The notes under the pieces were generated by a model that saw nothing but the letters and a program-made list of their open reading frames with translations, ran no database searches and had not been told where the DNA came from. Shown here in pieces: positions 3,455 to 18,390 of a DNA stretch of 32,000 nucleotides. Position 1 is the stretch's first letter. Each line of letters begins with the position of its first letter. A program made the position numbers and the translations under genes. Source of the stretch: an uncultured archaeon (GTDB taxonomy: Archaea; Iainarchaeota; Iainarchaeia; Iainarchaeales; JAAZKV01); assembly GCA_964551375.1 (NCBI GenBank), contig CAZKBG010000001.1:60001-92000 (forward strand), read 5' to 3'.

Positions 3455-3970
3455 TTACTCGATGTAACTTTGTTTTGAATAAGGGCAGCACTCATCAAAT
3501 TCATCTTTTTCCTTGCTTTCCTGTTGCGTGGGGTTGTCACAGCGCCCTGACTTTAAGTATTCTTCAAAAACCTCATGCAAGTTCTTAATCAAATTATGTT
3601 CTTTGTATTCCTTTGGATTAATCCACTCAAACTTATCGTGGTCCTTGCTTAGTTTCACTTCGCTTGTTTTTGATTTGCACTTAAAAAAAATTCTCACAAT
3701 TTGAAGCTGTTCTCCTTTTACAACAGGATAAGCTTCATTAACAAAAAACGCATTTCCTACTTCAATTTGGTTATGTTTAAGTCCAGTCTCTTCTTCTATT
3801 TCTCTAAGCAAATTTTCCTGAATTGTTTTGCCCGCCTCAATTCTTCCGCCAACAACATCAAAAAATCCTTCTTGAGTTCCATCAGCATACTTTTTAGACT
3901 CGCGCAGAACAAGCACCCTGCCCTCATGCTCAATGAATGCTTTGGCAGCAACAAATAGTTTTGTTTCCAT
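3455..3970 (-). CDS. NUDIX hydrolase
   Basis: Complete Nudix box GGRIEAGKTIQENLLREIEEETGL (GX5EX7REUXEEXGU). A TATA-like AATTAATTATA lies about 28 nt upstream. Confidence 0.85.
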   Translation of the reverse strand: METKLFVAAKAFIEHEGRVLVLRESKKYADGTQEGFFDVVGGRIEAGKTIQENLLREIEEETGLKHNQIEVGNAFFVNEAYPVVKGEQLQIVRIFFKCKSKTSEVKLSKDHDKFEWINPKEYKEHNLIKNLHEVFEEYLKSGRCDNPTQQESKEKDEFDECCPYSKQSYIE

Positions 3971-4079
3971 TTAGATTATCTTGGATTTTGAAGTATAATT
4001 AATTTTGCTTTATTGTTCCTTAATTTGTTTTATTGTCCCTTAAACTTGAACTAATAACAATTAAATATGTGGAAGAAGT

Positions 4080-4511
4080 TTGATAGTTTGGACTGGGATA
4101 ATTTTGGATTTAATAAAACAGCTAAATGATGAGCACAAAGAAATTCTGTACCTGCTATCTTCGCTTGAATCAGCTGCAAAAACAGGGGTTGTGGAACAGC
4201 ACACTTTTCTTAATCAAATCACTGAATTAAAAGAACTTTTAGTAAATCATCTTGCGGTTGAAGATAATTTGTTGTATTCAAAAATCAGGCAAAGTAAATC
4301 AGCAAAAGATCGTGAAACAGGGGAAGCTTTTTCTAAAGAAATGGGCAAAATTGCTGAGAAGGCAATGAAGTTCTTTAATACGTATGATAAGATGCCGGTT
4401 TCTTCTCTCCTTAAAAACAAAAAATTTATTTCGGATTTTGAAGAAATCACTTCAGCAGTGAGAAAAAGAGTTGCAGTTGAAGAAAGTGTTTTATTTAAGC
4501 TGTATAATTAA
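4080..4511 (+). CDS. Hemerythrin-like / HHE cation-binding-like helical protein (tentative)
   Basis: His/Glu/Asp-bearing helical pattern (NDEHKEIL ... LVNHLAVEDNLLY). There is no in-frame ATG near the 5' end, so the start is TTG 4080 or TTG 4104. Confidence 0.4.
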   Translation: MIVWTGIILDLIKQLNDEHKEILYLLSSLESAAKTGVVEQHTFLNQITELKELLVNHLAVEDNLLYSKIRQSKSAKDRETGEAFSKEMGKIAEKAMKFFNTYDKMPVSSLLKNKKFISDFEEITSAVRKRVAVEESVLFKLYN

Positions 4512-4585
4512 GCTTATTTTGAAAACCCTATGATTTTAAGTTAGTGGATTTTGGGGGCAGACAAATTGTCCAATAAAGTGTGTAC

Positions 4586-4783
4586 TCATTTTTTCTTGGA
4601 TTTTTTTAACTCTTCCTCAAGAACAATGAGCTGTTTTTTGCAGGTATAAATAGTCTGGGCGGCTTCGCTAAGCCTTGATTCAGAATACAAATTTGCGTCA
4701 AGCTTTTTGTTCTTAGACTGCCTAAGCTGAGCGGAAGCAATTCTCTTTCTCAATCTGCTGATTTTTTTATGCAGTTCTGACAT
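4586..4783 (-). CDS. Small Lys-rich coiled-coil hypothetical protein (65 aa)
   Basis: ATG ORF with TATA-like GATTAAATAC (complement of 4808-4817) about 29 nt upstream. No family recognised. Confidence 0.4.
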   Translation of the reverse strand: MSELHKKISRLRKRIASAQLRQSKNKKLDANLYSESRLSEAAQTIYTCKKQLIVLEEELKKSKKK

Positions 4784-4831
4784 ATAAGTAAATTAAGCCT
4801 GCTTGTTGTATTTAATCCTGCTTTAGGTAAA

Positions 4832-4839
4832 CTATATAT
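4832..4839 (+). promoter_or_regulatory. TATA box CTATATAT about 28 nt upstream of ATG 4864
   Basis: Read directly. The gene begins ATGCAAAA with no SD, as do 6508, 10199 and 6410(-). Confidence 0.45.
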
Positions 4840-4863
4840 CCCGCAAATGAGGATAATTATGTT

Positions 4864-5562
4864 ATGCAAAACAAGCCTGTGCGAAAAAACTCTTTTTCAA
4901 AGCCAAAAGTGGACAAAACAGACCCTGCAAGATTTAGGCGAACAACAAGATTAACTTGGCATTTAATGGAAGCCTCAAGAAAGCTTGGAAGAGGCCCTCC
5001 AAACGTAAAAGCAAAAAAAGTCGCTGAACTGGTTCTTGAAAAAATTCCAACTGATTTAAACATTATTCACTCTGAAAAAAACCGCCTTTTTAGAAGAAGC
5101 GCGCATAATGCTCTGCTTTATAAAAAGCCAATCGGACCAATGCAATGCGCAGAGAGGTGCAATTTAGCAATTGCTCTTCTTAACGCATCAGGAGTAAAAT
5201 CCTGGCTTGCGCGCGTAATTTATTTAGAAAGAAAAACAAAAACTTGGCATTTTCATGATTACGCAGAATTTGTTTCCGGAGAACGCGTTTACACACTGGT
5301 TTTTGGAACAAAGCCTGACGGAAGAGGGGATTATACAATAATACCTGACGCGGTCGAACAAGTTTTTAAAGGCTCAAATCCGGTGGTGTTTAGGGCAACT
5401 GATTCAAAGCAAATAGGCGGGGTTGACAGCTGGGCAACTTACAAAGCATATTCAAGAAAGCTTAACCAGAGCTTTACAAAAGAAATGGTAAAAAATAGAA
5501 GAAGATTGGACCTGTTAATTAGAGAAGGAATAATTCCTCAAGAAGCCCTTTGGCATATTTAA
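4864..5562 (+). CDS. Transglutaminase-like / papain-fold putative cysteine enzyme, paralog 1
   Basis: KKPIGPMQCAERCNLAIALLNASGVKSWLARVIY ... WHFHDYAEF resembles the transglutaminase-core pattern G-x-C-x(3)-a-x-l-x(2)-aLLRa-x-G-I-P-A-R ... H-a-W-x-E. It is a clear paralog of 9337..10161. No signal peptide or TM segment. Confidence 0.5.
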   Translation: MQNKPVRKNSFSKPKVDKTDPARFRRTTRLTWHLMEASRKLGRGPPNVKAKKVAELVLEKIPTDLNIIHSEKNRLFRRSAHNALLYKKPIGPMQCAERCNLAIALLNASGVKSWLARVIYLERKTKTWHFHDYAEFVSGERVYTLVFGTKPDGRGDYTIIPDAVEQVFKGSNPVVFRATDSKQIGGVDSWATYKAYSRKLNQSFTKEMVKNRRRLDLLIREGIIPQEALWHI

Positions 5563-5603
5563 CGAACTTATTAATTCAGGCTCTGATAAATTCAACGCAT
5601 TGA

Positions 5604-6410
5604 TTATTTTCTACGCATTAATCTATTTTGTTTCGGCTTAAGCATGGGCAAAACGCCTTGTTGAGTTCCCCTCAAAAATCTGGCAACAGCTTTTTGCTCA
5701 AGCCAGTCATATTTTCTTTTTGCTCTTGGAAAAGATTTGTACTTGCTTTTTTGAGGAACTCTTCGCCTTGCTTTTTCAGCAATTTGTGCTCTTAAATCTT
5801 TTTCTCTAAGATTTTGCGCGGTTTTTTTAAATTTTCTTTCAGCAAGAACAGCGTCCCTTGCGCCTGCGCCAAGCCCAAATTTCGGCGGAATATTAGTTAA
5901 TTTAAAATCCTTATTAGCCCACCCATGCGGAATTTGAAGAAGCCTTGCCGCAGCCGCATCTTCTTTTAATCTTGAGCCAATCATAAGAGCATCTCTTCTT
6001 TCAATTCCCTCTCTTCGCATAATCTCAGCAATTCTAATTGCTTTCCCGAATGCTTCTTCAGAAAGATAACCTGAATCCCGTGCTCTATCAACTCGCTGTT
6101 CATATGACGCTGATTTGAATACCACTCCGTTATGCGCAGCTCTTTCAAAAAATTCTCTTTTAGTAATAGGTCTCACAATTTGAACGCTGTCAAAAATAGA
6201 AAAATCCCTGTACCCTGCCGATTTAAGCTGGTCGATTAATTTTGAAGGAGTGGTAGCCTGCGCTGTCACAAGCGTAATTTTAACACCCGCTTCAACAATT
6301 TGTTTTAACTTTAGCGGCAAATGTTTTGAAGGCGGTTTGTATGGTTTATGTTTATTTCCAGTAGGAACGACAAGAGTGTATTGGGGTTCAATAAAAAGCA
6401 TCTTTTGCAT
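5604..6410 (-). CDS. Hypothetical protein with a basic C-terminal tail; possibly a degenerate HAD-like fold
   Basis: The 268-aa ORF begins ATGCAAAA with TTAAATATAT (complement of 6429-6438) about 24 nt upstream. ALMIGSRLKEDAAAARLLQIP is reminiscent of the HAD motif III/IV region, but no N-terminal DxD nucleophile is visible (LVVPTGNK). Confidence 0.55.
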   Translation of the reverse strand: MQKMLFIEPQYTLVVPTGNKHKPYKPPSKHLPLKLKQIVEAGVKITLVTAQATTPSKLIDQLKSAGYRDFSIFDSVQIVRPITKREFFERAAHNGVVFKSASYEQRVDRARDSGYLSEEAFGKAIRIAEIMRREGIERRDALMIGSRLKEDAAAARLLQIPHGWANKDFKLTNIPPKFGLGAGARDAVLAERKFKKTAQNLREKDLRAQIAEKARRRVPQKSKYKSFPRAKRKYDWLEQKAVARFLRGTQQGVLPMLKPKQNRLMRRK

Positions 6411-6475
6411 AATTACTCTTCTTCTTTGATATATTTAACATATGAGGTTATGCCCAAGATTATAGCATATGTTAA

Positions 6476-6485
6476 TTTTATATTT
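6476..6485 (+). promoter_or_regulatory. TATA box TTTTATATTT about 28 nt upstream of ATG 6508
   Basis: Read directly. It supports ATG 6508 over the track start at 6469. Confidence 0.45.
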
Positions 6486-6507
6486 AGGAAAGTTCTATTT
6501 TCTGTGT

Positions 6508-8409
6508 ATGCAAAATAAGGATCAGAAAGGACAGGGTACTATTGAGTACTTGGTTATTATTGCAGTAGTGATTGTGATAGCGTTAGTGGTAGTTGGCTTG
6601 CTCACAGGGCTTTTTGGTGACCTTGGATTGAGCTCAATTTTTGTTACTCCTGAAATTAAAGGACAAATCGGCTCAGGCGGGGTTAGCGTAGTTGATGCTG
6701 CTTCAGACCTTGATGGAAAAATACTTTTAGTACTGCAAAATGACTCAAGCGATTCTTTTGAAATTACCGACATTAATTCAGGCGGTGGAAAATCTTCCTA
6801 CCTTCCGACAAATTTAATTTTAGGGGACGAAAGGAGATTTTTGCTTGATGCTTCAAATCTTGAATGCATATGCTCCGCGGGAGAAACCCGCAGGATTTGC
6901 GAATTTACTGTGACGCTTACTTCAGCCGCGGGGCTTATAAAACAGGAGCAAATAAAAACTACCGTTGACTGCATTTCGCAGATAGTTGACAATCCAACAA
7001 TAATTCACCCTTCAACTGTTGGTTTAATGTCTTTATCATGGGCGCGGGCGTCGCATGATATTAATCCGCCAATTGCAAATATGGAAAGCGCCGGAGAGCA
7101 AGTTGGAATTGATTCAAGTGGAAATGTATTTGTTTATGGATACGCGCATAGGGAATATACTGACATAAATTTTGGAGATGTGTATCTAAGCGCTTCCCCA
7201 AGCGAAGGAAGGTATGCATTTTTGGCAAAATATAACCCGACAGGAACTGTTTTGTGGGCAATTGGAATTCCAAATGCTTGGTCCGGAGCATACCCTCAGC
7301 CGCTTGCAGTTGATTCCAGCGGAAATGTGTATATCACTGGAAATACAGACAGCAACATAGATTTGGGCGGGGGAGTAATTTATTATTCAAATGACTGGCG
7401 TGATTTTTTCATTGCAAAAATAGCGTCAAATGGAACTCCATTATGGATTAGGGGAGCTGGCGCAAATTCAGCTAATAGCGAAGGATTTACTGTGGGGCTT
7501 GATTTAAGCGGAAATCCAATGCTTGCGGGGTTATTTGGCGGAGATTTAAATATTGACAATCACATCCTGACTGATTTAGGCGACGCGATGGTTTTTGTTG
7601 TGAAATATGATTCAGACGGAAATTATCTTTTGAGCCACACAAGCAGAATAAACGGCGCGATGAATATAAAAAATGGAATCGTTGACTCAAGTGGAAATTC
7701 ATATTTCACAGGAGTTCAGCAGGCTGATGTAAACTTTGGCGGAAATGTAACAATTGCTTCAAATGGTAACCAAAATTATTATGCAGTAAAATATGATTCA
7801 AATGGAAATCCGCTTTGGGCAAAAACAAGCTATTCAAGAAACACCGATCTTAGAAGCATTGCAATTGACACTTTGGGAAACGTGCTTTTTACAGGATATT
7901 ATTCAGGAGGATTTTTTGGAAATCCTGATTTAAATATCGGCGAAACAGTGCTTCACGGAACCAGCGCTGACAATTTATTTGTTCTTAAATATTCTTCTGC
8001 AGGGAGCCTTGTTTGGGCAAAAGTATCTGACATTTTAGGAGCTTCAACAGTTTTATTCCCTGGGGGAATGGTTTCGGATTCAGAGAACAATGTATACATT
8101 GCAGGGCAGTATAGAAGCGGGGATGCAAATTTCGGCTCAATTTATTTTCCAACACCAATTCTTTCAACATTTAATTTCTTTGTCTTAAAATATTCTTCAT
8201 TAGGAGTTCCAATTTGGGGAGATTATGCAAAAAGCTCTCAGGCGCTAATGTCGATATATTTGAATTCAATAAGTGCAAGCTCAAACGGAAGCATAGCAAC
8301 AATAGGTGAGTTTAATACAATTGACATTAATTTTGGAAGTTATATCCTTCCAGCTTTGTATGACAGAAACACGAGTTTTTTTGTGGTGAAATACGCGCAG
8401 GCACAGTAA
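6508..8409 (+). CDS. Surface protein with an archaeal class III (prepilin-type) signal peptide fused to an SBBP-type beta-propeller repeat domain
   Basis: N-terminus MQNKDQKGQGTIEYLVIIAVVIVIALVVVGLL matches the class III motif (K-G / Q-x-[ST]-x-E-x-x-x-[LI] plus a hydrophobic helix). It is followed by about 7-8 repeats of D-S-S-G-N-x-[YF]-x-[TY]-G ... [FY]-x-x-K-Y-x-x-x-G-x-x-x-W (for example FLAKYNPTGTVLWA, FVVKYDSDGNYLL, YAVKYDSNGNPLWA, FVLKYSSAGSLVWA). Confidence 0.8.
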   Translation: MQNKDQKGQGTIEYLVIIAVVIVIALVVVGLLTGLFGDLGLSSIFVTPEIKGQIGSGGVSVVDAASDLDGKILLVLQNDSSDSFEITDINSGGGKSSYLPTNLILGDERRFLLDASNLECICSAGETRRICEFTVTLTSAAGLIKQEQIKTTVDCISQIVDNPTIIHPSTVGLMSLSWARASHDINPPIANMESAGEQVGIDSSGNVFVYGYAHREYTDINFGDVYLSASPSEGRYAFLAKYNPTGTVLWAIGIPNAWSGAYPQPLAVDSSGNVYITGNTDSNIDLGGGVIYYSNDWRDFFIAKIASNGTPLWIRGAGANSANSEGFTVGLDLSGNPMLAGLFGGDLNIDNHILTDLGDAMVFVVKYDSDGNYLLSHTSRINGAMNIKNGIVDSSGNSYFTGVQQADVNFGGNVTIASNGNQNYYAVKYDSNGNPLWAKTSYSRNTDLRSIAIDTLGNVLFTGYYSGGFFGNPDLNIGETVLHGTSADNLFVLKYSSAGSLVWAKVSDILGASTVLFPGGMVSDSENNVYIAGQYRSGDANFGSIYFPTPILSTFNFFVLKYSSLGVPIWGDYAKSSQALMSIYLNSISASSNGSIATIGEFNTIDINFGSYILPALYDRNTSFFVVKYAQAQ

Positions 8410-8446
8410 ATTTTTAAGTTACTAAACCTCACTCAGATGATTAAAA

Positions 8447-9256
8447 CTATTTTTTAACAATTTTCACTTCATCAGGGTCAATTCGGTGGCTGTTTGCATA
8501 ATCATGCATTTCCATTTCCGCTTCAGTGATTTGTTTTTGAAGAATTTTTGAAAGCTGGATTGACTCAGCGCTTAAATTTTCAGTCCTCAATAAATTAGCT
8601 TTTTGCGCTTCTCTTTGCGCAATAAACTCTTTTACTGATTTGATTAGCATTTTTGGATTAGTTCTGTATAATTCAAAAGTCGTTGGAATTATGGAAATAT
8701 TCACCGCTGCGTTTGCAAAAGCATCGCTTTTTGTCTGCCTTTGGACAAGCGTGCTATTTGCCATTTTGTGAAGCGAAGTGGCTTCATGCCCGATAAATTC
8801 AATTATGGGCTCCATAAGAGCTTCTCTTGATCTGCCATCAATAGCAGGCATTCTGTTAATAATTTTCATTAAGTAAAATTGCCTTGGCGGAGCCTGCTTA
8901 ATGTTTGTTCCCTTAAAAACAGCTTCCCTTCCCCTTATCATGGATTCCATGAGCCTGAGCACTTGAGGGTTTCTCACAAAATGCCTTGAATTTGCAACCA
9001 CTTGTTTTGCAATAAGGGCTCTTGCAACTTCCTGCGCATTTGAGAATGTTCCTGATTTTTTTCTTAAAAATACAGTGTCATGAGAGCGGATTGTTCCAAC
9101 GCTTGGATTTCCTTTAAGTCTCTTCATCCACCCATTGTCAGCCATTATCATGGTGAGTTCATTAACCTGCCCGTTTCTGCGCAATACAGGCGCGCGGTTA
9201 AATCTTTTTTGCGCTGCTCCTTGCTGAGTTCTGTTATGCGGATGTCCATTAGCCAT
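8447..9256 (-). CDS. Hypothetical protein (269 aa), basic N-terminus, helical C-terminus
   Basis: Long ATG ORF with CTTTAAATTAA (complement of 9279-9289) about 28 nt upstream. No family recognised. Confidence 0.6.
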   Translation of the reverse strand: MANGHPHNRTQQGAAQKRFNRAPVLRRNGQVNELTMIMADNGWMKRLKGNPSVGTIRSHDTVFLRKKSGTFSNAQEVARALIAKQVVANSRHFVRNPQVLRLMESMIRGREAVFKGTNIKQAPPRQFYLMKIINRMPAIDGRSREALMEPIIEFIGHEATSLHKMANSTLVQRQTKSDAFANAAVNISIIPTTFELYRTNPKMLIKSVKEFIAQREAQKANLLRTENLSAESIQLSKILQKQITEAEMEMHDYANSHRIDPDEVKIVKK

Positions 9257-9336
9257 ATTACTAATTTTGTGTTTTCGCTTAATTTAAAGGTTTTGGAGGA
9301 GGAAAATATCCTGTCCAATATTTTGAGATTAGCTTT

Positions 9337-10161
9337 TTGGATAAGCTTTTTAACAACCCTTGCATCAAGTTGTTTATGAGCGCAGGAAAAAAAATGAGGG
9401 TGTTTAGAAAACTCGCCGCGCACGATGCCAAGATTTATGATGCACTACTCCCAAAACGCTCCTCAATTGCTCCTCACTTTAACAATACTCCAGTTGCTTC
9501 TTCAAAACATGTAAAAGTCGCAAAAACAGATCCTGCAAGATTTAGGCGAACAACAAGAGCAAATCATTTAGTTCATGAATTTGCCGCGCAGGTTAAAGGA
9601 GATAGTTTTCAAAAAGCAGAACAAATTGCAAAAAAAGTTCTTGAACAGATCCCAGGCTCTGATACAATTAAGGTAATTGAAAAGCGCAGAATATTCGCCC
9701 GCGGAGCAGGAATAGCGATGGCAGAAAAAAAACCAATAGGGCCTTTTCACTGCGTTGAAAGATGCAATTTAGCACTTGCTCTATTAAACGCATCAGGGGT
9801 AAAATCCTGGCTTGCAAGAGTGATTGTATTTAACCGCAAAATAAAGAAAGTTGAATTTCACGACTATGTTGAATTTTCAGCAGGCGGAGGAGTCTGCACA
9901 TTAATGTTCACAAATCACAAAGGCACAGACAAAAACTTTGTTGTTCTTGAAGGCCCAGTTGAGTTATCAGTTCATTCCGTTGGGAATATGACACTTAGAG
10001 CTCTTGATTCAAAACAAATAGGCGGAACAGGAAACTGGAATGAGTATAAAAGATTTGAACGAAGAATTAGCGGCATGGGATTTTATAGGGAAATTAAAAA
10101 AAACGAGCGCAGAATTGAACTGCTTCAAAAAGAAGGATTAATGCCTCATAGATTATACTAA
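9337..10161 (+). CDS. Transglutaminase-like / papain-fold putative cysteine enzyme, paralog 2
   Basis: KKPIGPFHCVERCNLALALLNASGVKSWLARVI ... FHDYVEF ... DSKQIGG aligns with 4864..5562 throughout. Start uncertain: TTG 9337 in the track, ATG 9376 or ATG 9394 are equally plausible. Confidence 0.5.
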   Translation: MDKLFNNPCIKLFMSAGKKMRVFRKLAAHDAKIYDALLPKRSSIAPHFNNTPVASSKHVKVAKTDPARFRRTTRANHLVHEFAAQVKGDSFQKAEQIAKKVLEQIPGSDTIKVIEKRRIFARGAGIAMAEKKPIGPFHCVERCNLALALLNASGVKSWLARVIVFNRKIKKVEFHDYVEFSAGGGVCTLMFTNHKGTDKNFVVLEGPVELSVHSVGNMTLRALDSKQIGGTGNWNEYKRFERRISGMGFYREIKKNERRIELLQKEGLMPHRLY

Positions 10162-10168
10162 ACTTAAC

Positions 10169-10177
10169 AATTATATT
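10169..10177 (+). promoter_or_regulatory. TATA-like AATTATATT about 26 nt upstream of ATG 10199
   Basis: Read directly. The gene begins ATGCAAAA without an SD. Confidence 0.4.
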
Positions 10178-10198
10178 CTCAAGAGCTATTTTTCTATA

Positions 10199-11458
10199 AT
10201 GCAAAAAAGAGCGCAGTGCGTCCACAAAGGACAGGGCGCAATAGAATATCTTCTGATTATAGGCGTTGCAATTCTAATAATTGCTGTAGTGATAATTGCA
10301 GTAATTGGAATATTAGGGCAGGGGCAGAATCAAAAAGACGATTCGCTTAATTTAGCCGGCTCAAGCTACAAAGGAATTTATGATATAATTGATACCATGC
10401 ATAATGCAGTTAAATTAAAGATTCTGCTTAATGTTGGAACTAATGAAATTAAGGTTCCTTCAGATATGTCTGCAGGGGATATATTTTTCTCAGCACCTCC
10501 TGAAGGAACAATACTAAAAAATCTTCCTTGTCCAGTTGCAACTTCTACTTTCACTTCAGGCGCTTGGGCTCCAACAATTGACTCCTGCAATGTTCCGGGC
10601 GGAAGCACAATTATTGTTGATGTTCCAAATAATGGTTCTGAGGCAAATGTTGCTTTTACACTTCCAAATGAAGGGGTTCCTGAATTGATATTCTTTTCAG
10701 GCGGTAAGGGAACAATTGAGGACCCGTTTAAAATTTCCACAATTAACCAGCTTCAAAATATTGACCGCGCTCTTGGGAAAAATTTTATTTTAGAAAATGA
10801 TATTGATGCAAGTTCTAAAGTGGATTTTATTCCAATTGGGGCCAGAAGCGGAGTTCCATTTACTGGGACTTTTGATGGGAACAATAAAAAAATTTATAGA
10901 TTAACAATTAATCAAATAAATGTTGATTCTGCTCTTAATGGATTAGTTCCTGTAAAAGTGACTAACTTAGGTCTTTTTAGCAAACTTGGCGCTGCGGGGC
11001 CTAATCGCGCACAAATTCATGATCTTAAAATTGAAGATGTTAAAATTTATGTTATTCCTGATGATGATTTTTTAGCCGCGGCAGCACAACCAAGTTCAGG
11101 CGGAGCTAATTCGGGGATATTATCAGGGCAAGCTGATTTAGCAAATGTTTCTTTTTCAAATATTGTAATTACAAGAGGGGAAATAAATTACACCTTCATG
11201 TCCACAATAAATCCGGGGTATACTGATGTTTCTTCAGTTGGGTGCTTATTTGGAAAAAACTCCCGCGCGACAGAGGGTAATACTTGTGTTTCACAAGATG
11301 TAAAAGTTACTTTGGTAAAAATTGATACTTTGAATTCTGGGGAGCCTGTGATTCATCCAACGCAAATTAACAATTGTAAGACAGTAAGTATTGTTCGCAC
11401 AAGCGGGCTTAATCCGATTGGTTTTCAAACTAATTGTGTTTCTTCTAATGACTCCTGA
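10199..11458 (+). CDS. Surface protein with a class III (prepilin-type) signal peptide fused to an adhesin-like (probable beta-helix) domain
   Basis: N-terminus MQKRAQCVHKGQGAIEYLLIIGVAILIIAVVIIAV. The mid-region GKGTIEDPFKISTINQLQNI ... NDIDAS ... FIPIG ... PFTGTFDGNNKKIYRL ... LGLFSKL is the motif series seen at the start of many prokaryotic surface adhesin / GLUG-type beta-helix proteins. Confidence 0.65.
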   Translation: MQKRAQCVHKGQGAIEYLLIIGVAILIIAVVIIAVIGILGQGQNQKDDSLNLAGSSYKGIYDIIDTMHNAVKLKILLNVGTNEIKVPSDMSAGDIFFSAPPEGTILKNLPCPVATSTFTSGAWAPTIDSCNVPGGSTIIVDVPNNGSEANVAFTLPNEGVPELIFFSGGKGTIEDPFKISTINQLQNIDRALGKNFILENDIDASSKVDFIPIGARSGVPFTGTFDGNNKKIYRLTINQINVDSALNGLVPVKVTNLGLFSKLGAAGPNRAQIHDLKIEDVKIYVIPDDDFLAAAAQPSSGGANSGILSGQADLANVSFSNIVITRGEINYTFMSTINPGYTDVSSVGCLFGKNSRATEGNTCVSQDVKVTLVKIDTLNSGEPVIHPTQINNCKTVSIVRTSGLNPIGFQTNCVSSNDS

Positions 11459-11501
11459 TTGAATAGAAAACCCTTAAATTCTCTTAGATTGTATTCTTTT
11501 C

Positions 11502-12464
11502 ATGGCAAGGAAGTTAGTTTTGGCAGTTCTTCTGCTTTTTTTGACTGCGAGTGTATTTGCGCTTTGTGAAACAACTCCTGATAAAATAAAACGAATTGAT
11601 TTGAGTTATAATATTCTTTCAGACGGAAGCGCGGATGCTACATTTGTGCTTTTAGTTGATTATTCCGAATCCTGCTTGATTGAACAATTTAAGGATTCAA
11701 TTGACCGAAATCTTGATTCAAATTTTCAAATAGTTGAAATATCTTCAGATCAAGTATATTGTCCAAAAGAGTTTATTTTGAATAATGTAAAAACCGAGCT
11801 TGGGAACTTTCCTGACGGGCTAAATTGCATTTCAACTTTTGGAAACGACAAAAACACTGTGCGAATGAATTTAACAGGAAAAGCAACCAGTTTCGCAAAG
11901 AAAGTTGATTTGAACGGAGAAAGCGCTTATGAGCTCACGCTTGGCGGGACAGGTTTTATGGCTTCTCTTCCAAATGACAGTTCTCTTGTAATCCAGCTCC
12001 CAAATAATGCTTACTTTGTAAATCACTCTCCATTAGAAGGGAGCACAAAGCAGCCTACTAAATTAACTTGGGCGCCTGTTCCAAGCGAAAAGGTTTTGGT
12101 TAATTATGCTCAAGAAGGCTCAATTTTAATCGCACAGCCGATTGTTCAGCAAAAGGATGATACAAATTATTTGTTAATCTTGATGATGGTGATTTTGGTT
12201 TTATTTGTTTTAGTTATAATTAATGTTCGCTCAAAAAGAGCAAGTATCCCAATTGCTGAGCAAAGCCTTGAAGCACAGCTTAAGGATGTAAAGGACAAAA
12301 TAAAAAATTTAGAGCAGATGTACATGAAAAGAATGATTGATGAAACAACTTACCGCCACCTAAACGAGCAGTATCAAGTGCAGTTGAATGAAGTTGTTGT
12401 TAAGATAAAGAAACAAAATGAAAGCAAAAATCCAGCAAATCCAACTCCTTCAAAAACAGAGTAA
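11502..12464 (+). CDS. Type I membrane-anchored surface protein (signal peptide, ectodomain, C-terminal TM helix, charged coiled-coil tail)
   Basis: MARKLVLAVLLLFLTASVFALC signal-like N-terminus. TM segment YLLILMMVILVLFVLVIINV near residue 225, then a Lys/Glu-rich helical tail. TATA-like CTTAAATT lies about 25 nt upstream. Confidence 0.6.
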   Translation: MARKLVLAVLLLFLTASVFALCETTPDKIKRIDLSYNILSDGSADATFVLLVDYSESCLIEQFKDSIDRNLDSNFQIVEISSDQVYCPKEFILNNVKTELGNFPDGLNCISTFGNDKNTVRMNLTGKATSFAKKVDLNGESAYELTLGGTGFMASLPNDSSLVIQLPNNAYFVNHSPLEGSTKQPTKLTWAPVPSEKVLVNYAQEGSILIAQPIVQQKDDTNYLLILMMVILVLFVLVIINVRSKRASIPIAEQSLEAQLKDVKDKIKNLEQMYMKRMIDETTYRHLNEQYQVQLNEVVVKIKKQNESKNPANPTPSKTE

Positions 12465-12534: not shown

Positions 12535-14508
12535 TTAAATTTTAATTTTAAAAAACTCTTCAACTTCTTTCTCAGGCTCTTTAGTATGCACTGCGACAAA
12601 GTCTTTGGGATAAAATCTCTTGTACCTGTCCTCTCCAAACCTTTCATCAAGGAATACGCAAACCCCTCTGTCCGTTTCAGTTCTAATAACCCTTCCAGCC
12701 GCCTGCATTGCTTTATTTATTGCAGGGGCATTGTAAGCATAATCCCAACCTTTTCTAAACTTTTTTTCGCAGTAATTGATTAAAGCGTTTGAGTAAATAT
12801 TCATTTTAGCAAAAGGAATTCCAACAATAATTGCGCAGCTTAAGTAATCTCCGGGAAAATCAAGCCCTTCCGCAATGCTTCCCCCGCTCACGGCAAGCAG
12901 CACTCCGCCAAAACCGCTTCCAAGAGTTTTGAATTTATTCACAAGCTTGGTTTTCTCATCCTGCGTCATTTCCCTCTCCTGCTTTAACACCTGCCTTCTT
13001 GTTTTGAGAAGATTTGCGATAGAGTACATTAGTTCAAACGAAGGGAAGAATACAATAGTATTTCCAGGAACTTTTGAAACAATTTTATCAATCTCGTTTG
13101 CAATATCAAAGTACTGCGTAGAGCTTCTGGCAGTGTATTTAGTAGTGGTTTTAGTTGCGATTAAATTCAACCTGTTTTCTTTTGGAAAAGGGCTTTTGTA
13201 TTCTTTAGTAATCACTTTTAGCGTGTCAAAATTTTGCCCTTCAAGCTCCTGTTTGTGAATTGAAAGCGCAGTAGCCGCTCCAAGCGAATTATTTTTGAGC
13301 CCTGCTTCTTCCTGTTGTTTAGCGTTGAATTTAGAATTTAACTGGGTGACTCCAAAAACATCAGAAAACATCGCAAGCGGCAAGAGGGTTCCAGACATAA
13401 GCACTGCGGAATGAACCTGCGAGAGAACATTACTTGTCATATCAGCAGGATCAAGCGGCTGAACGGTAATGGTGAGCGAGCCCTTTCTTTCAATAACAAA
13501 ATGAGTATGCTCCTTTTCATTATGAATATCATGCAAAAACTCATCCACTGCAAGCAGGTAACAGTTCTCGGTCTTATTTTTGTTCATGAATTTTGTAGAC
13601 GCTTCGCTGATTTTTTCCCTTTCCATAAGCCCTACTTTTCTTAAAAATAGCAAATCAGTTCCTTCAAGCACCGCTTCATTTTTCTCAAGCGAAAGCTTTT
13701 TTCCAAGGTTAAGAATTTCTTTCCCAATATCCTTAATCAAAAACTCCATTTCAAAATCCCCCACATTTTTAGCTTCCTTCTCCGCTTTCTCAATTGCATT
13801 GAGGTCAATGCTTGTCGTCATCATATCCCTAATTCTTTCAGGCATATTGTGGGCTTCATCCACCACAAGAACTATGTCCTCAAGTGCAAGTTCGCTTGGG
13901 CCAAGTATTCCTTCCCTGATTTCAGGGTGGAATAAGTGAGAATAATCTCCAATAACTAAATTAGCTCCCTTAATCATTTCAAGCGTGATTTCATAAGGGC
14001 AAAGCCCCTTGAATTGGCAAGTATCTTTCATATAAGCGTAAGAATTATTGTAAGACTGCAAAATCTCCCTTTTTCTTCTATGCGCAATCGCTTTTTGCTT
14101 TGGAGAAAACCCTTTAGTGTTATTATAGTAACTGCACGCCTTGTCCTTTTTCTTTTTCGCGCATGCTTCATAAAACCCCATTCCCACTCTTGAAATAAAA
14201 GAATCCACGCACATCTGCTTTCTTCCCACAAGATCCACCGCTTTAATTCCAAGCTGGAATTTTGAATTCATCAAATTCGCAGTTTCAAGAACAATTTCGT
14301 GCTGGGAAATTTTAGGAGTGAGAAAGAAAACCTTTTTGTTATTATCAAGCGCATAGCTAAGCGCAGGCGCTAATGAAGAAACGGTTTTTCCTAGGCCAGT
14401 CGGGGCATGCGCAAGAAAAATCTTCTGCTTTGAAACAGCGTGGCTGACATCTTTTACAAGTTCCTGCTGCTCTGCCCTTACTTTTTCATAAGGAAAATAA
14501 ACCTTCAT
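12535..14508 (-). CDS. xpd: XPD/Rad3-type (DinG-family) Fe-S DNA helicase
   Basis: Walker A APTGLGKT, DEAH box VVDEAHN, and four Cys in the helicase-domain-1 insertion (MCVDS, EACAKK, KACSYY, GLCPYE) as in the XPD 4Fe-4S domain. C-terminal SGGSIAEGLDFPG and AAGRVIRTETDRG motifs. Confidence 0.9.
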   Translation of the reverse strand: MKVYFPYEKVRAEQQELVKDVSHAVSKQKIFLAHAPTGLGKTVSSLAPALSYALDNNKKVFFLTPKISQHEIVLETANLMNSKFQLGIKAVDLVGRKQMCVDSFISRVGMGFYEACAKKKKDKACSYYNNTKGFSPKQKAIAHRRKREILQSYNNSYAYMKDTCQFKGLCPYEITLEMIKGANLVIGDYSHLFHPEIREGILGPSELALEDIVLVVDEAHNMPERIRDMMTTSIDLNAIEKAEKEAKNVGDFEMEFLIKDIGKEILNLGKKLSLEKNEAVLEGTDLLFLRKVGLMEREKISEASTKFMNKNKTENCYLLAVDEFLHDIHNEKEHTHFVIERKGSLTITVQPLDPADMTSNVLSQVHSAVLMSGTLLPLAMFSDVFGVTQLNSKFNAKQQEEAGLKNNSLGAATALSIHKQELEGQNFDTLKVITKEYKSPFPKENRLNLIATKTTTKYTARSSTQYFDIANEIDKIVSKVPGNTIVFFPSFELMYSIANLLKTRRQVLKQEREMTQDEKTKLVNKFKTLGSGFGGVLLAVSGGSIAEGLDFPGDYLSCAIIVGIPFAKMNIYSNALINYCEKKFRKGWDYAYNAPAINKAMQAAGRVIRTETDRGVCVFLDERFGEDRYKRFYPKDFVAVHTKEPEKEVEEFFKIKI

Positions 14509-14610: not shown

Positions 14611-15177
14611 TTATTTATTTTTATAATGCGCTTCAATATCCCAAGAGCTCCAAGCAAGGCACTCTTTGTCACTAAATCCCAATTTTTTTGCCAATTGATG
14701 AACCGCTTTAATGCTTGGCCCCTCAATTTCCAAAAAACACGGCACAAATCTGTGCTTTCCAAGGTACTTTTCAATTTCAACATGACTTTTTCCTAACTTC
14801 CAGCTGGTTCTGTTCTTATCCATGCCGCCGATTTTCACAAGCCCAAGCGCAGTGAAGATTTTTTGCATATCTTCAAAGCTTCCAATTTCAAATTCAGTTT
14901 CTTCAGCAGTTTTTGCTTTTGCGCTCTTGTGCTTTTGATGTTTATGAGTAAGAACGCACTGCACTTTGCCCTTAGTGTCAGTCATTTTTCTTAATCTTAG
15001 TATTTGCTTGTTTTTCTTTAATCTCCTGTCAGGGTAATCCATAATAATTGCTTCAATTTTTCCTTCAAATGCTTTTTTAGCCCCAAGTTTTGCAAGCCTA
15101 GCCTCAACTTTTTTTTTATTAATCTCAATTATCTTAACTTCAATCTCTTTCATAATCTCACATTCATTTCCATTCAA
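14611..15177 (-). CDS. CYTH-domain protein (CyaB-type class IV adenylyl cyclase / triphosphate tunnel metalloenzyme family)
   Basis: Signature ExExK near the N-terminus (KEIEVKI), LRLRK, TEFEI, and a C-terminal FLEIEG motif. An alternative start is ATG 15153. Confidence 0.7.
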   Translation of the reverse strand: MNGNECEIMKEIEVKIIEINKKKVEARLAKLGAKKAFEGKIEAIIMDYPDRRLKKNKQILRLRKMTDTKGKVQCVLTHKHQKHKSAKAKTAEETEFEIGSFEDMQKIFTALGLVKIGGMDKNRTSWKLGKSHVEIEKYLGKHRFVPCFLEIEGPSIKAVHQLAKKLGFSDKECLAWSSWDIEAHYKNK

Positions 15178-15222: not shown

Positions 15223-15990
15223 ATGCCAAACACAATAAGCGGTTTTGAGTTTATGTCTAATCCCATAGGCATTACAAAAAAAGCTCTTTTAAATTTGCCA
15301 AACGACGCTTCAGCATTGATAATATTAATTTCAAATCTTCTTTTCATAATAGTTGCCGTGCTTCAAAACGTTTCCCTTCAGGAAGTATGGCTGGTATATT
15401 GGTGCCAGAGCATCATAATAGGATTTTTTGCGCTTCTTAGGATGCTTACTTACAAACTGAAATCAGATTCTTCAAAAGTTAGTGGAATGAAGGAAGTATC
15501 AAGGATTTTTATTGCAGGATTCTTTGTTTTCCACTACGGTTTCTTTCATTTTGTGTATTTAATGTTCATAGGATTCTCATTTATTTCCTCTGCATTTATG
15601 GATGTCTTCACGTCACCCGGCACTATTGTTGATGCCGCGAGCACTGCCCAGTTTGCAGGGCCAAACATGATGCTTGTATTTTTAGGAGCAGTAATTTTCT
15701 TTTTTGCGCACTTGATTTCATTTATTCTAAATTTTGCAAAAGACAACCAGAAAGAATGGGACTTAGGCGAACTGATGTTTGCGCCTTATTCAAGAATAAT
15801 CCCAATGCATATTTCAATAATTGCCGCAGGATTTATCGCAATGTTCCTTGGGATACCTCTGTCTTTAATGTTTGGAGCATCAGGGGCAAGAGCAGTTGAA
15901 GTTGTAATAATAGTATTTTTCCTTGGATTAAAGGTAGTTCTTGATTTGACTTCGCATGACTCTGCTCACCGCTTGGAGCATAATATTTAA
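15223..15990 (+). CDS. Polytopic integral membrane protein, unknown function
   Basis: The 255-aa ORF has about 6-7 hydrophobic segments (for example ALIILISNLLFIIVAVL, IFIAGFFVFHYGFFHFVYLMFIGF, MMLVFLGAVIFFFAHLISFIL). No peptidase A24 Asp motifs were seen. Confidence 0.65.
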   Translation: MPNTISGFEFMSNPIGITKKALLNLPNDASALIILISNLLFIIVAVLQNVSLQEVWLVYWCQSIIIGFFALLRMLTYKLKSDSSKVSGMKEVSRIFIAGFFVFHYGFFHFVYLMFIGFSFISSAFMDVFTSPGTIVDAASTAQFAGPNMMLVFLGAVIFFFAHLISFILNFAKDNQKEWDLGELMFAPYSRIIPMHISIIAAGFIAMFLGIPLSLMFGASGARAVEVVIIVFFLGLKVVLDLTSHDSAHRLEHNI

Positions 15991-16024
15991 ACAAAGGTTG
16001 AAGCATTATATAACTGGTAAATTT

Positions 16025-16522
16025 ATGCCTAATCCTCCATCAAGAAGAAGTGTTCGCAAATCGATTACCCGCCCGCTTCCAAAAGGAATGCCTAACGCAG
16101 AAAAACTTGCAATCCTTCGCGAGCGAGTGAAAACTGCAAGAGAACTTGCAAAATCCCCGCGTCCTCTTCCTCCAAAAATGATTGTTGCTGCCCTTGCTGC
16201 GCGCGGAAAATTAGGCGTTAGTTTTGCTGATAGAAGAATAAGCGATGTGATGCGAATCGCCCAAGGGAAGAAACCTTATGCTGGAGTAGCAAAGGCGCTT
16301 GTGAAGATTTGGAAATGGCAAAGAGACGGCAGAAATGAAATGATTCTTGAAGACCATAGAATACTTACTCAAATAGCAAATAAACTCAGAAAAGCTGAGC
16401 GCCCAAGCTCAAAAAAATCCCCTCTTCCTCTGACAACAAGAGAGAAAAAAGTTTTGCGTGATTATTTGCTCAGGCTTGACAAAAGCGGAAAAAATCCTGA
16501 GTTTGACTTGTCAGGCGATTAA
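16025..16522 (+). CDS. Basic hypothetical protein (about 165 aa)
   Basis: The track ORF starts at 15956 and overlaps the preceding gene. ATG 16025 (MPNPPSRRSVRK...) removes the overlap. Arg/Lys/Pro-rich, no family recognised. Confidence 0.55.
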   Translation: MPNPPSRRSVRKSITRPLPKGMPNAEKLAILRERVKTARELAKSPRPLPPKMIVAALAARGKLGVSFADRRISDVMRIAQGKKPYAGVAKALVKIWKWQRDGRNEMILEDHRILTQIANKLRKAERPSSKKSPLPLTTREKKVLRDYLLRLDKSGKNPEFDLSGD

Positions 16523-17373: not shown

Positions 17374-18390
17374 ATGGCTGATGAGCAAAACCCAGTGCGT
17401 GTTTCAAAAAATGAAAAGTACCGCGGAAAAGTTGTTCAGTTTAGAAACAAAAAAGCTCACCGCGAAGTAATGTCCACTCATTATTCCCTTGATGAGTTAT
17501 TCGGATTTTATAACGCAATGTTTCACACTTATCGAGATATTTATGCGCAGCGCTCCGATGCAATAGTATCTCCTTTGCGCGGTTCGGAGCCTTTAGTGAA
17601 ATCAGTAAAACTTGTTGCAGGGCTTGAAGGGCATTCAAGCGCGCTCCCAAAAGTGTATTATCCAAAAGTGGGGCAGGTAAATTATGGAAAATACTCTGGC
17701 GGAGTAATTCCTCACATAGGGGGAGATTATGCGGTAACCCACAATCAGGTGGAAACAGAGCAAAAGAAAGAAATGAACAGAATTGTTGAAGGGGTATTTA
17801 GAGACGCTCATTATCCAAAGCATCCTAAAAAAAGAATTCTAATCACAGTGCTTGATGAAGTATACAGCGGGGGTTCAATTTCAAAAAATGTCCAGCTGCT
17901 AGAGGAAGCTCTTCAGGAAGTAACCACAAAGAGATTAAAAAAAGGGGGAAAAGTTCCTACTGTTTATATTAGAGTAATTGCAATTGCAAACAAAAATTCT
18001 TACCGCTGCAAAGAGTACCGCTCGCTTCTTTCAAGAGGGATAGTAAAAGAATTTGTTGTTCCAAAACTTTTTACCACTGATTCCCCGCATTTTTTGTATC
18101 CTTTGGTAAAAGAAAGGGCATCGGGAAAATTCCAGTGGCTTAGAAGAGAAAAACCAGTTAAATTAGCTCTTACAAGAAAATCAATTGACGGGCGCTCAAC
18201 TTTGTTTGAAGATTTAGCGTCAATTCACCAGTTAAGAAAACACTGGGGTGTAAAAGACGCGCAGGGATTTAAGCACATGGCAATGCACACTCAAAGAGAG
18301 GTTGCTCTTTTAATGCTTCCAAGACTTCAAAAACGTGCTTATGCGGGCTTTGCAAGAGATATTGGAAGAATTTCAAGATTCAAAAGATAA
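17374..18390 (+). CDS. Hypothetical protein with a possible phosphoribosyltransferase-like (PRPP-loop-like) motif
   Basis: RILITVLDEVYSGGSIS resembles the type I PRTase PRPP-binding loop (4 hydrophobic-D-[DE]-x-x-[ST]-G-x-[ST]). The upstream AIVSPLRGSEPL resembles the PRTase RG loop. No Walker A motif. Confidence 0.4.
   Translation: MADEQNPVRVSKNEKYRGKVVQFRNKKAHREVMSTHYSLDELFGFYNAMFHTYRDIYAQRSDAIVSPLRGSEPLVKSVKLVAGLEGHSSALPKVYYPKVGQVNYGKYSGGVIPHIGGDYAVTHNQVETEQKKEMNRIVEGVFRDAHYPKHPKKRILITVLDEVYSGGSISKNVQLLEEALQEVTTKRLKKGGKVPTVYIRVIAIANKNSYRCKEYRSLLSRGIVKEFVVPKLFTTDSPHFLYPLVKERASGKFQWLRREKPVKLALTRKSIDGRSTLFEDLASIHQLRKHWGVKDAQGFKHMAMHTQREVALLMLPRLQKRAYAGFARDIGRISRFKR

Follow-up and report, generated by a model that had tools for sequence, protein, structure and literature searches.

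A lineage-restricted, predicted transglutaminase-like protein family and its adhesin neighbours in an Iainarchaeota genome

CPR-C4, a protease of 221 amino acids (aa) from candidate phyla radiation (CPR) bacteria, has a Cys-His-Leu(carbonyl) triad, a basic pocket and unrelated gene neighbours, and its authors speculated on a link to pili (PMC9108980). More generally, the third residue of the triad varies across papain-like enzymes (PMC10318531). The present analysis concerns two paralogous genes whose products resemble such enzymes, together with the surface-protein genes beside them. The genes lie at 4864-5562 and 9376-10161 of a 32,000-nucleotide stretch of archaeal DNA (the window; positions 60,001 to 92,000 of contig CAZKBG010000001.1). 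The host contig measures 946 kb and the genome 1.09 Mb (93% complete), and in GTDB the source genome shares its genus with metagenome-assembled genomes (MAGs) labelled Candidatus Forterrea (DPANN, phylum Iainarchaeota). The two products belong to an undescribed, lineage-restricted family inside the well-known transglutaminase-like (papain-fold) superfamily. The explanation favoured here, at a probability of roughly 0.55, is that the family is a lineage-specific cytoplasmic Cys-His hydrolase with old paralogs, and that its adjacency to adhesin genes was inherited. Hydrolysis is the chemistry that the fold and the conserved residues, as compared in sequences and in a model, would suggest.

By analogy, CPR-C4 (PDB 7OB6/7OB7/7PJO) may be regarded as the nearest working analogue. 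Like the family, it consists of one domain of about 220-230 aa, comes from symbionts with ultra-small genomes and has a fold of transglutaminase/vasohibin type. In both, Cys and His are conserved, the third element is not, the protein is positively charged and the gene neighbours are uninformative. Unlike the family, CPR-C4 comes from bacteria, occurs as a Zn-bound homodimer and has neither an RFRRTTR tail nor a DSKQIGG loop; no sequence similarity between the two was detected by profile searches of the PDB, and CPR-C4 was absent from the top 50 Foldseek matches. The bacterial and archaeal transglutaminase-like superfamily (PF01841, Transglut_core; Makarova, Aravind and Koonin 1999) shares with the family a homologous core, G.C.E/D...LL.a.G#..r...G.....HaWvE, with Cys and His in register. 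The family differs from it in staying below the gathering threshold and in not conserving the canonical Asp. The vasohibins VASH1/2, which are tubulin carboxypeptidases, recur among the structural matches (E 4e-3 to 4e-2, probability 0.5-0.98, TM-score 0.27-0.37) and are likewise transglutaminase-like Cys proteases with a non-canonical third residue. However, they are eukaryotic enzymes that depend on the chaperone SVBP and receive tubulin in an acidic pocket, and no sequence relationship to the family was detected.

Extent, fold and active site of the family

The two family genes of the window are as follows.

4864..5562, + strand: paralog 1, 232 aa, isoelectric point (pI) 10.2, cytoplasmic, predicted transglutaminase-like; Cys95, His131, Glu135, Asp180, Gly148
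9376..10161, + strand: paralog 2, 261 aa in the database form, which starts at ATG 9376; same Cys/His core

The open reading frame (ORF) of paralog 2 is open from a TTG at 9337, which gives 274 aa (9337-10161). Paralog 2 has an N-terminal extension of 45 aa and a Thr where the canonical Asp would be expected. The paralogs are 48% identical over 213 aa (E 2e-64), and the motifs that the first-pass annotation of the window had quoted for them, KKPIGP..C.ERCNLA.ALLNASGVKSWLARVI, FHDY.EF and DSKQIGG, are indeed common to both. A whole-genome search returned exactly two copies of the family, namely these paralogs. At the nucleotide level, a 36-nt stretch encoding KTDPARFRRTTR is identical at 35 of its 36 positions (4915-4950 versus 9523-9558) although the paralogs are otherwise diverged, with two further near-identical islands at the codons for CNLAxALLNASGVKSWLA and for DSKQIGG. 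A constraint acting on the RNA or DNA of the 36-nt island is not supported, since orthologues elsewhere use different synonymous codons for the same peptide; short-tract gene conversion in this genome, or chance, fits better.

The family comprises 14 clusters among 5.8 billion proteins, always carrying the source name "hypothetical protein" and no precomputed Pfam domain, and a profile search recovered 45 representatives among 1.84 billion proteins. The members that could be located come from Iainarchaeota (Forterrea-like) genomes. Of the 215 genomes of the phylum, about 20 give strong matches, mostly within the window's own taxonomic family and a few in a second family of the same order, and a metagenome scan with a narrow alignment gave 7 loci. 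The paralogs themselves have no match in NCBIfam, PHROG or PADLOC and none above threshold in Pfam. An origin from a phage, a defence system or a mobile element was rejected, PHROG and PADLOC yielding no matches for either the paralogs or the two orphan genes described below. No published description of the family was found in the literature searched, nor any of an enzyme-adhesin pairing of this kind, in agreement with what the first-pass annotation had stated about the pairing.

The assignment to a transglutaminase-like fold, which the first-pass annotation had put forward together with a call for profile and structure checks, is well supported by the profile alignment and by the predicted structure. 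An hhalign comparison of 39 members with four genuine Transglut_core proteins of the same lineage gave a probability of 96.9% (E 1.9e-10, 141 columns), in a register that places Cys95 on the Cys of GVCDEF and His131 on the His of HAWxE. Weak PF01841 matches are present in 8 of 14 members (best E 5.7e-4). The AlphaFold (AF2) model built on the family alignment has a pLDDT of 85 and a pTM of 0.83; it shows the arrangement of papain and transglutaminases, with Cys95 capping the N-terminus of helix 96-108 and His131 placed within strand 127-138. From the N-terminus, the architecture consists of a disordered Arg-rich tail (RFRRTTR), a helical lead-in, the Cys at a helix start, the His in the beta-strand that comes next (FHDxVEF, corresponding to HAWxE), a conserved R..DSxQIGG loop and a long C-terminal helix. 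The top Foldseek matches in the PDB are 3isr (a transglutaminase-like putative cysteine protease), VASH1/2, 3kd4, PeiP/PeiW and arylamine N-acetyltransferases (NATs). PeiP and PeiW are pseudomurein endoisopeptidases.

The NATs and amide synthases among these structural matches bring in a different chemistry, namely acyl transfer or cross-linking (NAT-like N-acyltransfer or transglutaminase transamidation) in place of hydrolysis. Both chemistries are compatible with one and the same Cys-His fold. Viral acetyltransferases also appear in the viral library BFVD, which returned only generic transglutaminase/NAT-fold matches. Nevertheless, such an activity is improbable for the family: the NAT matches rank below the transglutaminase-like proteases and the vasohibins, the hhalign homology is to Transglut_core proteins, and the Cys-His-Asp/Glu triad that NATs usually retain is not conserved in the family.

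The source genome also encodes a Transglut_core protein of 585 aa (C1:676078-677835, equivalent to L055:1078-2835, where L numbers denote loci; PF01841 E 1.1e-14). It has an N-terminal hydrophobic leader and a C-terminal transmembrane segment and is probably exported and anchored, in contrast to the cytoplasmic and basic family. ORFs of about 570-600 aa resembling this protein give a weak match to the family profile in many genomes of the lineage, and four proteins of this kind formed the reference set of the hhalign comparison.

Conservation is concentrated at the predicted active site. Initiator Met aside, Cys95, His131 and Glu135 are the only invariant residues in the 39 diverse members, and Arg98, Trp114, Arg177, Asp180 and Gly186 are near-invariant. 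All full-length loci, including the most distant branches, keep the Cys and the His, with an acidic residue at Cys +2. The Cys/His/Asp triad originally proposed is not supported in that form: the Cys and the His hold throughout, but the Asp does not. In the hhalign alignment the canonical triad Asp falls in a gap, and at the counterpart position, 148, copy 1 has Gly and copy 2 has Thr. Asp occurs there solely in the subclade formed by L001/L048/L084/L086/L088; elsewhere the residue is G/T/H/N/L/F/S/K/R, so that a conserved triad Asp is not found in the family. In vasohibins, CPR-C4 and other papain-like enzymes, the third element is a backbone carbonyl or another residue (PMC9108980, PMC10318531). 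Because the canonical Asp is absent from the window copies, orientation of His131 by another element is proposed, and this support may come from the carbonyl of residue 148, from Asp180 or from Glu135.

Loss of the canonical Asp in both window copies could also be taken as the mark of a non-catalytic scaffold that has retained the fold. This is very improbable. Cys95 and His131 are invariant in the 39 members and in all full-length loci, even on branches more than 1.5 substitutions per site away, and pseudoenzymes normally lose such catalytic residues.

Members of the family are about 230 aa long and have neither a signal peptide nor a transmembrane helix. For the paralogs, where this had been pointed out from the start, no hydrophobic segment was found, the maximum 19-residue Kyte-Doolittle mean being 1.3. 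Every member is strongly basic (pI 9.5-10.8, with about 20 more Lys+Arg than Asp+Glu), and all have a low-confidence N-terminal tail with a conserved Arg-rich motif. The basic surface suggests an acidic substrate or partner.

Class III signal proteins and clade-limited gene order

The genes that flank the paralogs are listed below.

5604..6410, - strand: orphan gene, 268 aa, convergent with paralog 1
6508..8409 (also a start at 6469), + strand: surface protein, 633 aa; class III (prepilin-type) signal; head formed by an SBBP beta-propeller; second gene downstream from paralog 1
8447..9256, - strand: orphan gene, 269 aa, divergent from paralog 2
10199..11458, + strand: adhesin-like protein, 419 aa; class III signal; starts 37 bp after the end of paralog 2

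Class III signals on both surface proteins had been recognised in the first-pass annotation, and Pfam agrees to within a narrow distance of its cut-off. The product of 6508-8409 matches Class_IIIsignal with E 1.1e-4 (22.4 bits, the cut-off being 23.7) and also SBBP repeats with E 1.3e-12, with a LipL53-type SBBP match at 7e-36; it begins MQNKDQKGQGTIEYL, and its N-terminal stalk resembles that of the adhesin at locus L001. The product of 10199-11458 matches Class_IIIsignal with E 9.1e-4, just under the cut-off, and begins MQKRAQCVHKGQGAIEYL. Its orthologue in L012, the closest relative of the window, is 43% identical and occupies the same position. Both adhesins carry the leader KGQG[AT]IEYL, which also heads most of the 21 class III-type ORFs found on the contig with a strict motif. 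With 633 and 419 aa the proteins are of ordinary size, and the description of a "giant" adhesin has been dropped.

The notion of a duplicated module was likewise rejected. Only the transglutaminase-like gene is duplicated; compared with each other, the two window adhesins have only the signal peptide in common, and the two opposite-strand orphans, which exist as annotated, are unrelated to each other and give no significant family match in Pfam, PHROG or PADLOC. A gene of the same size and position as the orphan at 5604-6410 lies next to the closest orthologue, P0002, and the orphan at 8447-9256 has a counterpart at the same position in L012 only (60% identity). The possibility that an orphan serves as a conserved divergent or convergent partner was rejected, as they are conserved no further than the closest relatives.

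About 30 distinct genomic contexts were examined, and a maximum-likelihood tree was built with 34 members as rows. The family gene has a class III gene beside it or close by in the window (twice), in L012, in L004, where the class III gene is upstream with a small opposite-strand ORF between, and in the subclade L001/L084/L086/L090. In this subclade the block consists of Pterin_4a, the family gene, sometimes a Metallophos gene, a class III adhesin of Glug type and GrpB, and the XPD gene follows GrpB where the contig extends far enough (L001, L084). Only the start of the block is seen in L088, whose contig ends inside the Metallophos gene. In the flanks examined, no class III gene was found for L007, for the Forterrea loci L008, L009 and L051, for the subclade with Methyltransf_11 neighbours, for L062 and L072, or for a dozen others. 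In L012 (L076:5220-6024) a frameshift or an assembly error has broken the only family gene into two overlapping ORFs, and the class III adhesin orthologue downstream is intact.

On the tree, the copies with a class III neighbour are all grouped in a single clade of 8 rows (support 85/81), the eighth being L088, whose contig ends before the expected adhesin. Adjacency requires two label changes, and none of 500 shuffles gave a number as low. The remaining rows, about 26 and including Forterrea copies of the same genus, have different neighbours and no class III gene. Because both window paralogs lie inside the adhesin clade, the duplication occurred within it. The adhesin heads in the clade differ (SBBP, Glug, Laminin_G and one without assignment), and the cargos are unrelated. 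The pairing first noted is real but belongs to this single clade of 8 of the 34 rows, and the first-pass annotation, which had named a missing neighbourhood association as a ground for refutation, is thereby refuted in part. A class III neighbourhood is not conserved across the family, and enzyme and adhesin are not an obligate or conserved two-gene system; their link is a clade-limited gene order. It is best explained by a single ancestral juxtaposition in a surface-protein-rich island near XPD, which was then inherited and carried through the duplication. Three class III genes lie within 16 kb at L001, and the window contains two plus a pilus operon at 18-26 kb.

Chance adjacency is nevertheless unlikely, because class III neighbours are rare: 4.3% of the genes on the contig have one within one position and 7.9% within two. 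A rival explanation makes the enzyme a partner devoted to the neighbouring class III proteins at the cytoplasmic face of the membrane. Its target would be the leader or the new N-terminal Gln left by prepilin-peptidase cleavage (KG|QG[AT]IEYL), and its task could be deamidation, cyclisation to pyroglutamate, trimming or quality control. Apart from the base rate of 4-8%, this explanation draws on the co-directional arrangement with a gap of 37-84 bp in window copy 2, L001, L012, L086 and L090, and on the survival of the adjacency through duplication and a change of adhesin heads. NTAQ1 offers a precedent, as it is a cytosolic N-terminal Gln amidase with a transglutaminase-type Cys-His-Asp triad and acts on the very residue predicted at +1 of the class III neighbours (PMC4214742). 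Unlike the family, NTAQ1 keeps the triad Asp, and it is not among the top structural matches; action of the family on N-terminal Gln would by this analogy be a conjecture. The gene order itself fits a dedicated partner poorly. The association is confined to one clade of 8 of the 34 rows, with about 26 rows lacking a class III neighbour. A Metallophos gene is interposed in L084 and L088, an opposite-strand gene separates copy 1 from its adhesin, and the L004 adhesin lies upstream, past an opposite-strand ORF. The L012 family gene is split by a frameshift beside an intact adhesin, the genome has about 21 class III genes for two enzyme copies, and a TATA-like element is found inside the 37-bp spacer before 10199. 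On balance, a dedicated partnership with the class III proteins is unlikely.

Processing of the leader itself had been suggested in the first-pass annotation as one role of the paralogs. A leader peptidase replacing PibD/FlaK was rejected: the source genome contains two Peptidase_A24 genes above cut-off (contig positions 639147 and 697063), and because these prepilin peptidases are present, no alternative enzyme is required. Lasso-peptide B proteases of the McjB type are cytoplasmic transglutaminase-like Cys proteases that remove the leader from the product of a neighbouring gene. They may serve as a precedent, but the recognition element for ribosomally synthesized and post-translationally modified peptides, the cyclase and the short precursor gene of those systems are not present at the family locus, where the class III leaders are already served by the two dedicated A24 peptidases.

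In a narrower form of the partner idea, the enzyme of the adhesin clade would be an archaeal counterpart of the bacterial PilD methyltransferase step, converting the +1 Gln to pyroglutamate or glutamate. A peripheral enzyme on the cytoplasmic face would capture the Gln exposed after A24 cleavage and form a gamma-thioester, and pyroglutamate or glutamate would follow before the adhesin is assembled. Archaeal A24 peptidases are without the bacterial N-methylation domain, and archaeal pilins can carry N-terminal pyroglutamate (PMC4471445). Such a step is quite improbable, though if true it would explain the pyroglutamate N-termini reported for archaeal pilins.

Two further genes mark the syntenic block in which the adhesin-associated copies are found.

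12535..14508, - strand: XPD/Rad3-type helicase, a syntenic anchor that recurs in the window, L001, L004, L007 and L084 at a distance of 2-4 genes from the family gene
14611..15177, - strand: CYTH-domain gene, beside XPD in L001 too, with one gene between in L004

The CYTH gene is part of the inherited syntenic block with XPD. The recurrence of XPD raises the question of a nucleic-acid or helicase-associated factor working with XPD or superfamily 2 (SF2) helicases, loosely like the transglutaminase-fold domains of Rad4/XPC and PNGase. In Forterrea, an 870-aa SF2 helicase gene precedes the family gene (L008:2534-5146, L009:7317-9938, L051:5278-7923), its stop codon being overlapped by 4 nt in L008 and L009 and separated by a 57-bp gap in L051, and all members combine a pI of about 10 with the conserved Arg-rich tail. 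However, XPD is never directly adjacent and lies on the opposite strand, and its occurrence follows the syntenic block that also holds the adhesins. Pairing with the SF2 helicase is confined to one shallow lineage, in which the helicases are 85-90% identical, and many members have no helicase nearby. Rad4/XPC is also without catalytic residues, in contrast to the invariant Cys and His of the family. Overall, a role of this type has a low probability.

The Forterrea helicase contains ResIII and Helicase_C, followed by a C-terminus of about 470 aa without assignment, and its core matches PADLOC PbeA with E 1e-45. Helicase and family gene may form a different functional pairing in that subclade. 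In a Forterrea MAG (L013, L075:5478-6026, - strand), a 182-aa ORF matches a piece of the SF2 helicase (89% identity) together with the C-terminal half of the family, and is apparently what deletion or rearrangement has left of the helicase-enzyme pair.

Other genes of the window and of family loci

One more protein belongs to the surface cluster of the window.

11502..12464, + strand: surface-cluster protein, 320 aa, with an N-terminal signal peptide, a C-terminal transmembrane helix, a coiled-coil tail and a weak DUF4897 match

Upstream of paralog 1, between it and a hemerythrin-like gene, an unlisted ORF of 65 aa lies at 4586-4783 on the - strand. Its product is Lys/Arg-rich and, judged by eye, resembles a coiled coil, and a 76-aa gene on the opposite strand occupies the matching place upstream of P0002. 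Two basic ORFs of 188 and 338 aa (15956-16522 and 17374-18390) lie between the CYTH/XPD block and the pilus operon, and have no match in Pfam or PHROG. A scan of the window with bacterial promoter and terminator models, which are not applicable to archaea, gave counts at the level of shuffled sequence.

At other loci of the family, different neighbours are found. In one subclade, a small gene of about 155-175 aa follows the family gene co-directionally within about 40 bp (L057:8346-8816(-), L063:2614-3087(-), L064:4581-5051(-), L067:847-1329(-), L068:728-1249(+), L074:2346-2825(-)); two representatives match Methyltransf_11 with E 1e-8 to 1e-10. In L062 and L072 the family gene lies beside EF-1alpha and S10. 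Just upstream of the 424-aa EF-1alpha-like ORF, L062 has an ORF of 1240 aa (3716-7438) that starts with the translational GTPase motif AHIDHGK. It is presumably an EF-2-type gene, and would then exceed the usual length by far, perhaps because of an intein or another insertion.

Proposed activity and meaning for the family

In the favoured explanation, that of a lineage-specific cytoplasmic Cys-His hydrolase, Cys95 activated by His131 would attack an amide bond of an intracellular substrate, either a peptide bond or the side-chain amide of Gln. A thioester would form and would then be hydrolysed, with His131 held in position, in the manner of vasohibins and CPR-C4, by a backbone carbonyl or by an acid that has moved elsewhere, for instance Asp180. 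Most likely the enzyme would be a protease or amidase of narrow specificity whose substrate is acidic and intracellular.

Several findings weigh against this explanation. The Pfam profile Transglut_core (PF01841) scores paralog 1 at 15.8 bits, below the gathering cut-off of 23 (E 0.018), and gives no match to paralog 2; formal membership of PF01841 is not supported for the paralogs. Foldseek probabilities reach 1.0, but the E-values are about 1e-3 and the TM-scores are low, at 0.27-0.39. HMMER and profile searches of the PDB chains found no sequence relative of the family with a solved structure. The basic character is also less distinctive than it may seem: the median pI of the proteome is 8.8 and 12% of its proteins reach at least 10, so that a pI of 10, within the top 12%, is not extreme. 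Finally, adjacency within the adhesin clade has survived about 50% sequence divergence, the duplication and swaps of the adhesin head, and this persistence could reflect selection for the pair and not mere synteny.

For annotation, the enzyme-plus-adhesin "module" should not be recorded as a system, because the link is one of clade-limited gene order. What the analysis adds to the transglutaminase/papain superfamily is a delimited, uncharacterised family of basic, cytoplasmic Cys-His proteins of about 230 aa, in which the canonical Asp is usually absent. If modification of the N-terminal Gln of pilin-like proteins were true of any of its members, this would fill a gap in the biogenesis of archaeal type IV filaments. 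The reduced genomes of Iainarchaeota-type DPANN archaea keep few dispensable genes. The parallel with CPR-C4 suggests that small intracellular transglutaminase-like proteases recur in episymbiont biology.

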